From the UHGV virus genome UHGV-0366079: DNA of 8,355 nt; one strand, given 5' to 3'. Under the pieces are notes generated by a model. It saw only the letters and a program-made list of their open reading frames with translations, did not search any database and was not told where the DNA came from. Below, in pieces: positions 6,973 through 8,067 of this stretch. Within the stretch, counting starts at the first letter, position 1, and every line of letters starts with the position of its first letter. The translations under genes and the position numbers were made by a program. The stretch comes from a virus.

Positions 6973-7287
6973 TTAATGCCAGCTACTGGCGTGCGAAATA
7001 CGGTTGTAATCGAAAATAAAACCTTTCTCATAAATCCATAAGGGGATTTCCGCTGGCTTGGCTTCCAGCGTTCTTATTAGCGGAACAACGTTATTAGAGT
7101 CTGGTGAATCACAATAGAAATTAATATCGATACCGAACGAAAGCAATTCTCTTCTATGGCGATAAAAAGTGTTATGAGGTAACATTTCTTTCATGTTAGC
7201 CCCTTGTTTCCAAAGTAAATAAGTTGACTGTATTTTTCTTGGCAGTTTCGTTATTTTTTCATCACTTAAAATAGCATTCTGATTCAT
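6973..7287 (-). CDS. X: pX, in-frame internal restart product of gene II (C-terminal 104 aa)
   Basis: Internal ATG at Met261 of pII (MNQNAILSDE; M13 pX starts MNIYDDSAVLDA as recalled) preceded by AGGGAG about 8 nt upstream inside gII. Confidence 0.6.
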   Translation of the reverse strand: MNQNAILSDEKITKLPRKIQSTYLLWKQGANMKEMLPHNTFYRHRRELLSFGIDINFYCDSPDSNNVVPLIRTLEAKPAEIPLWIYEKGFIFDYNRISHASSWH

Positions 7288-8067
7288 TTCTATTCTCCCT
7301 ACATATTCAGAGAATAATTGACGTGGTGTTTTCATATTCCAGTTAGCGCCAAGCGTTAAATTTAAATCAATAAGCTCAGTTGTTCTTAATGTTAATTCAA
7401 TACGTAATTTATCTTTCGTCCAGTCCAGTAACCCGGCTCGTACAAACTCTTCGGCTATCTGGTGCCCTTTTTTACCAGAAACGTGTTCATCATATTTTGA
7501 ATAAAATTTCAGACTCCATCGACGGGAGTTTTTACCTAAATAAACTGTACCGCCTTTCCCACATGCGCGACCATGGCGTGTTTTAGCTTTAAATTCGGCG
7601 GCATAAAGCCATGATCTGACATTTTCCAGCGTAGATAATGAATACATGTAATTAATGTCAACACGTGAAATTTTATACTGACCTGCCATAACGGCTTTAT
7701 AAGACGCTAAATCATGAGGAATATTCAATAAGGATAAAATCCTGGCATAGACCGTCAACATGAGCCCTTGTATATCATCCGACCCAACAACAGAATGCCC
7801 CTGCAGAAACTTGGAAGGATTACCATCAATGTACAAATGTGTCGCTTTACCTTCGCCATTAGATCCTATCGATCGTACTTTCATCGTTGCTTCATGCGAA
7901 CCGCGAACAGTCAGTCGCTTAACGGTTTCCCACTCAATTGCACCGTCAGCATCAACGCTGACAACACTCCCCGCCGGAAGCGGTTTGTGTGTGCAAGGGA
8001 AAATCCCGGTAAGCCAATCGATCACGAATAAATCCTCAAAATTGCAAAAATGACGACTTACTAACAC
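6973..8067 (-). CDS. II: Filamentous-phage pII rolling-circle replication initiator (nickase)
   Basis: 364 aa with conserved blocks versus M13 pII as recalled: LQGHSVVG (M13 LQGHNVFG), YKISRVD, NNVVPLIR near the C-terminus (M13 NNVVPLVR). The only in-frame start before residue 62 is GTG 8067..8065, with no SD and a stop 3 codons upstream. Confidence 0.8.
   Translation of the reverse strand: MLVSRHFCNFEDLFVIDWLTGIFPCTHKPLPAGSVVSVDADGAIEWETVKRLTVRGSHEATMKVRSIGSNGEGKATHLYIDGNPSKFLQGHSVVGSDDIQGLMLTVYARILSLLNIPHDLASYKAVMAGQYKISRVDINYMYSLSTLENVRSWLYAAEFKAKTRHGRACGKGGTVYLGKNSRRWSLKFYSKYDEHVSGKKGHQIAEEFVRAGLLDWTKDKLRIELTLRTTELIDLNLTLGANWNMKTPRQLFSEYVGRIEMNQNAILSDEKITKLPRKIQSTYLLWKQGANMKEMLPHNTFYRHRRELLSFGIDINFYCDSPDSNNVVPLIRTLEAKPAEIPLWIYEKGFIFDYNRISHASSWH

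Follow-up and report, generated by a model that had tools for sequence, protein, structure and literature searches.

An internal GTG codon as the likely start of gene II in a UPφ-type filamentous phage

In the phage f1, the leader of gene II serves the gene V protein as a translational operator, and phage I2-2 is viable. The latter does not integrate (PMC7307601), disruption of YPO2274 in Ypfφ abolishes the production of phage particles (PMC4266046), and UPφ901 is released into the culture medium (PMC7307601). For the UPφ viruses, Shapiro & Putonti (2020; PMC7307601) described GGGES repeats in g3p and reported a Ypfφ-like character for genes II and V and a resemblance of the remainder of the genome to I2-2 and IKe, gene IV being IKe-like.

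The window analyzed here, the whole 8,355-nucleotide stretch of UHGV virus genome UHGV-0366079, belongs to this already published group. It is one circularly permuted UPφ-type filamentous phage unit as opposed to an integrated copy, since a divergent 60-amino-acid gene on the (+) strand (8195..8355, continuing at 1-22) reads in frame across its ends. All phage genes lie on the (-) strand, in the order gII/gX, gV, gVII-like, gVIII, gIII, gVI, gI and gIV, with small accessory ORFs after them. Gene V, which encodes a ssDNA-binding protein (6644..6961 (-); PF17426 Putative_G5P, E = 3e-51), starts 12 nt after the gene II stop and is followed by the coat genes, so that the gII-gX-gV order of the inovirus replication module is preserved; the genes behind gV comprise those for the major coat protein, g3p, g6p, g1p (Zot) and g4p (secretin).

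The phage was identified through E. coli genomes and the literature; in the phage collection, a megablast with the entire window matched only a 190-nt gIV stretch, in IKe and PEar phages. Chromosomal prophages of 49 complete E. coli genomes match a 1456-nt stretch, made up of gII and the region upstream of it, at 99% identity or more, and most of these genomes carry at least two prophage copies. The published UPφ901-specific primers fit the window with 0, 2 and 0 mismatches, its g3p contains GGGES repeats, its genes II and V resemble those of Ypfφ and its gene IV that of IKe, and a dif-type site and integration at dif complete the set of features that mark UPφ viruses. In E. coli UM146 the prophage adjoins the true dif site of the host, with the dif-like phage site at its left end and the true dif (GGTGCGCATAATGTATATTATGTTAAAT) at its right end. 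In the window, the dif-like site (~1380-1412 (-); GGTGCGCATAA-TGTACGACTCG-TTATGTTGAAA) was found by reading the sequence and has good XerC and XerD arms flanking a central region of 11 nt instead of 6; a search for the canonical 28-nt dif that allowed up to 3 mismatches gave no match. As a separate observation, 15 places in E. coli EC5502 (NZ_CP092647.1) match the gII start region, which suggests either a very long tandem prophage array or an assembly artefact.

The longest ORF of gene II extends over 6973..8067 on the (-) strand and comprises 364 codons, with a GTG start at 8067-8065. As the first-pass annotation of this DNA stated, the frame is closed three codons upstream by a TGA (8074..8076 (-)), and no in-frame ATG occurs before codon 62 (position 7884). 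The annotation also held that gene II has only a GTG start that lacks a Shine-Dalgarno (SD) sequence. This is accurate for GTG 8067, before which we found no SD sequence (anti-SD duplex energy, +0.4 kcal/mol), but it overlooks a second in-frame GTG, codon 15 of the longest ORF (8023..8025 (-)), which follows the SD sequence GAGGA (8033..8037 (-)) after a 7-nt spacer. The duplex energy of this GAGGA with the 3' end of 16S rRNA is -6.0 kcal/mol, similar to the values of gV (-5.6 kcal/mol) and gVIII (-5.9 kcal/mol) in the same phage, with the caveat that about 8% of positions in the genome reach such a score by chance.

We conclude that gene II very probably begins at GTG 8025, 14 codons later than in the longest-ORF call, which revises its extent to 6973..8025 (-), 350 codons plus a TAA stop. 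The 30S subunit would be placed by GAGGA (8037-8033), and the 7-nt spacer would direct initiation to GTG 8025. The product would be a 350-amino-acid replication initiator that begins fMet-Ile-Asp-Trp-Leu, the conserved N-terminus of the II/X family, and the 14 codons between the two GTGs would constitute an untranslated leader that is open by chance in this lineage. We infer this use of GTG 8025 by the ribosome from the conservation of the start site, the SD sequence and the coverage of protein profiles. The correct 350-amino-acid gene model is already in RefSeq: WP_000568120.1 has 350 residues and starts at the position equivalent to 8025, as do the RefSeq/PGAP calls in UM146, F11 and SCU-118. 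Among the protein clusters compared, P0001 (350 aa) is 99% identical to pII.

Profiles of the II/X family match the gene II product over their full length and above curated cut-offs. In the numbering of the longest ORF, TIGR01629 (NCBIfam; 258 bits; cut-off 29) aligns over positions 1-406 of 407 with residues 16-352, PF05144 (235 bits) aligns over positions 2-231 of 232 with position 2 at residue 16, and phrog_702 aligns over positions 2-381 of 382 with residues 15-363; PF05155 (102 bits) is matched over positions 1-86 of 88. In the alignment, codon 15 is matched exactly by the annotated ATG of I2-2 pII (ATG ATT GAT TGG in I2-2, GTG ATC GAT TGG in the window), and the pII starts of M13 and IKe (Met-Ile-Asp) are flush with the same codon. 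M-I-D-W stands directly at the N-terminus of 28 of the 38 homologues read; in eight, which are called longer, an internal Met precedes I/L-D-W at the codon-15 position, and two have aberrant N-termini. Across 15 diverse members of the family M1, I2, D3 and W4 are invariant, as are P10 and H13. All 65 relatives compared have a start codon in alignment with 8025 (52 ATG, 11 GTG, 2 TTG), and at many of these loci a stop lies 0-5 codons before it without an alternative start. Since the site tolerates Met, Val and Leu but solely as NTG codons, it behaves as an initiation codon. Judged by its sequence, pII shows all the features that define the II/X replication protein family and can be tested in this way, the N-terminal Met-Ile-Asp(-Trp) included, and its role as a nickase is predicted. 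A PDB sequence search with pII returned no solved relative, the best match being a DnaA fragment at a level that is not meaningful (E = 0.11).

The closest divergent relatives are decisive for the choice of start. Locus L007, whose pII is 94% identical at the amino acid level, keeps both GAGGA and the GTG but has indels of +1 and +2 in the stretch that separates the two GTGs; consequently its frame is closed four codons upstream of the start, and the 14-codon extension is untranslatable. In L070 (88% identity) the leader and GAGGA are kept, the start is TTG, and the frame is closed three codons upstream of it. Homology of this locus to the window begins at the leader (8026..8060), and the sequence further upstream, including the site of the first GTG, is unrelated. 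For the Ypfφ and Klebsiella relatives (86% identity), the homologous DNA extends no further upstream than the start codon itself, and GTG 8067 is absent from the Ypfφ-type relatives as well as from L070. The SD sequence GAGGA is also kept in L006. About 35 nt of U-rich leader (8060-8026 (-); TAAGTCGTCATTTTTGCAATTTTGAGGATTTATTC), kept in the closest relatives, would precede the start codon in the gII mRNA.

Alternatively, pII could be translated from GTG 8067 without an SD sequence, as a 364-amino-acid protein with a 14-residue extension and the N-terminus MLVSRHFCNFEDLF... This is the longest ORF, and neither the window nor any of the near-identical E. coli copies interrupts its frame. We nevertheless consider it very improbable: beyond the unfavorable duplex energy, no profile covers the extension, indels disrupt it in L007, and L070, Ypfφ and I2-2 lack it. 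GTG 8067 moreover directly abuts the repeated intergenic motif TGAACTCA, and its surroundings look like regulatory DNA, not coding sequence. It is also conceivable that both GTGs are used, yielding a major 350-amino-acid form and a minor 364-amino-acid form, as the two codons are in frame and would probably share one mRNA if the promoter lies upstream of 8067. The objections to GTG 8067 apply here too, and an extension that is not kept even among relatives 94% identical in pII leaves the two-form explanation little credence.

The first-pass annotation had further proposed that the N-terminus might be truncated or rearranged at the junction with the regulatory region, and had suggested a check of 8060-8080 for sequencing errors or indels, since resequencing might reveal an upstream ATG-containing frame. 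The upstream regulatory region is indeed modular and differs between relatives. However, positions 7990-8110 are ungapped and 98.3-100% identical in 48 independent complete E. coli genomes, at least 10 of them at 100%, which excludes a sequencing error, and the two variant copies examined, those of F11 and SCU-118, differ from the window upstream of GTG 8067. Truncation is likewise refuted, as the II/X profiles are matched from their first positions (residue 15/16), MIDW is common to hundreds of homologues, and the module boundary does not fall within the coding sequence but coincides with the start codon or lies just before it. The comparison with E. coli genomes thus already disposes of the assembly-error or truncation explanation on sequence grounds, and we regard its probability as negligible. 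Translation from codon 62 (ATG 7884), the first in-frame ATG of the ORF, has next to no chance of being correct, given its weak SD sequence (-2.4 kcal/mol) and the loss of about 47 conserved residues, the invariant M1, I2, D3, W4, P10 and H13 among them, that it would entail.

With GTG 8025 as the start, the N-terminus of pII is not shorter than that of Ff pII. The earlier claim to that effect holds for total length (350 versus 410 aa) and fails for the N-terminus itself, which is flush with those of M13, IKe and I2-2. The Ff (410 aa) and IKe (421 aa) proteins are longer by about 75 residues, which are spread over about ten internal insertions, and three of these gaps (27 residues) fall within the first 100 alignment columns; by this alignment, the N-terminal part of pII is more compact, not cut. 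Among 54 relatives with complete genes, pII has a median length of 343 aa (range 333-378), and most of the best 120 database matches are 340-350 aa long, a distribution that makes the compact pII the norm of the I2-2/Ypfφ/UPφ subfamily. The first-pass annotation had allowed that start and length might simply be the family norm; relatives with the same start position and length indeed occur in working phages, namely I2-2, Ypfφ and UPφ901.

The suggestion that pII is translated inefficiently from GTG survives in part. The start is a GTG, but a different one (8025) with a normal SD sequence, so that lack of an SD sequence is not a basis for expecting poor translation. Initiation at GTG or TTG is several-fold weaker than at ATG, and the GTG start may modestly lower the output of pII in this lineage. 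Weak start codons recur among the UPφ lineage, with GTG in the window, L006 and L007 and TTG in L070. Start usage in E. coli is roughly 83% ATG, 14% GTG and 3% TTG. Non-ATG starts of gene II in 13 of 65 relatives (20%) are close to this ordinary bacterial usage, so that the GTG start is not unusual. By analogy with f1, it is conceivable, although we consider it unlikely, that the UPφ lineage holds pII translation low and that the U-rich leader serves the gene V protein as a translational operator; this would amount to the tight control of the nickase that the first-pass annotation envisaged. Weak start codons behind a conserved leader could reflect tuning of the nickase level, yet they are within normal start-codon usage. 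A fold of the RNA from 8095 to 7986 gave no structure beyond chance (z = -0.18) and no sign of SD sequestration.

Gene X is nested in frame within gene II (6973..7287 (-)) and encodes 104 aa. The first-pass annotation credited its internal start with a good ribosome-binding site, and we agree: ATG 7287 is preceded by GGGAGA (7294..7299 (-); -8.9 kcal/mol), a sequence built from Gly-Arg codons and identical in the closest relatives. The pX family profile phrog_17464 is matched over positions 1-100 of 100 from residue 261, which is ATG 7287, and the annotated gene X of I2-2 aligns with that of the window. This ATG is kept in 52 of 54 relatives, and M247 is invariant in the 15 diverse members. 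A second initiation at ATG 7287 would yield the 104-amino-acid pX from the C-terminal part of pII, an in-frame internal start of the kind that characterizes the II/X family.

Between gene II and the divergent gene lie three direct repeats of TGAACTCA (8076-8069, 8123-8116 and 8147-8140 (-); repeat family D1). They stand in the context CTnnTGAACTCA and make up three of the window's four exact copies; the repeats are kept in L007 and absent in L070 and Ypfφ. They are candidate operator or other protein-binding sites and may be pII/origin binding sites. A promoter scan of 7900-8355 yielded no (-) strand site above threshold; by eye, TTGAAC-17-TAATGT (8124-8096) is weakly promoter-like. The divergent 60-amino-acid gene (RefSeq WP_001335098.1; phrog_2503, function unknown) has no Pfam match and occupies the position of rstR in CTXφ. 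In relatives, the corresponding place is taken by other, unrelated genes, among them HTH_3-type repressors in L071 and L072, which indicates that the regulatory module is swapped between relatives.

Several observations concern other genes and database records. The longest-ORF calls of gIII (468 aa; start at 6295 versus 6151 (-)) and gIV (452 aa; 3538 versus 3445 (-)) also appear over-extended; the signal-peptide-like starts MRRKILIL (6151, gIII) and MRSVIVAF (3445, gIV) fit the RefSeq gene lengths as well as the 7-nt gap between gI and gIV in UM146. A set of E. coli and Klebsiella proteins (P0017, P0018, P0032-P0035, P0037 and P0039; 256-621 aa) join PF05144 to the secretin domain PF00263 and look like prophage deletion derivatives that fuse gII to gIV. 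Finally, the contigs of L006, L012, L041, L045 and L048 are filed under MAGs assigned to Nanosynbacter, Aerococcus, Oscillospiraceae, Lactococcus and Saccharibacteria. For a gammaproteobacterial inovirus gene, these assignments most likely reflect binning error, not a real host range.

Collectively, the odd-looking start of gene II almost certainly has two sources, the artefact of calling the longest ORF and a GTG start that is real but unremarkable. Calling the longest ORF adds 14 spurious residues and makes a normal gene seem to lack a ribosome-binding site, which is mainly a matter of annotation.

Among known systems, the gene shares with those of Ff (M13/f1/fd) and IKe the profiles TIGR01629, PF05144 and PF05155, a nested gene X and a conserved NVVPL near the C-terminus, but their pII proteins are 23% identical to that of the window, start with ATG and contain the internal insertions. 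An assignment to the Ff-type pII of the M13 subfamily was accordingly rejected: at this identity and with the approximately ten Ff/IKe insertions absent, the two belong to the same superfamily only. A tblastn search of the phage collection at E = 1e-5 did not reach M13 or IKe and returned only I2-2 and Dulem virus 58; If1, a suggested comparator, gave no tblastn match in the collection, and its record has no annotated II/X-family gene. The pII/pX of I2-2 (Lineavirus I22, NP_039615/NP_039616) are 56% identical over residues 15-358; its pII has 344 aa and the MIDW N-terminus, gene X is nested at the same position and gene V is next, whereas the start is an ATG with the SD sequence AAGGGA and the upstream region is unrelated. 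The Ypfφ YPO2274/CUS-1 replication protein is 86% identical, has the same length of 350 aa and the same gene X start and SD sequence, and differs in its ATG start and in an unrelated leader and regulatory region. From UPφ901 and the other UPφ viruses the window shows no substantive difference except that it is a permuted unit instead of an integrated copy, and the identity of its pII to the Ypfφ and I2-2 proteins fits the affinities stated for the genes of this group (PMC7307601).
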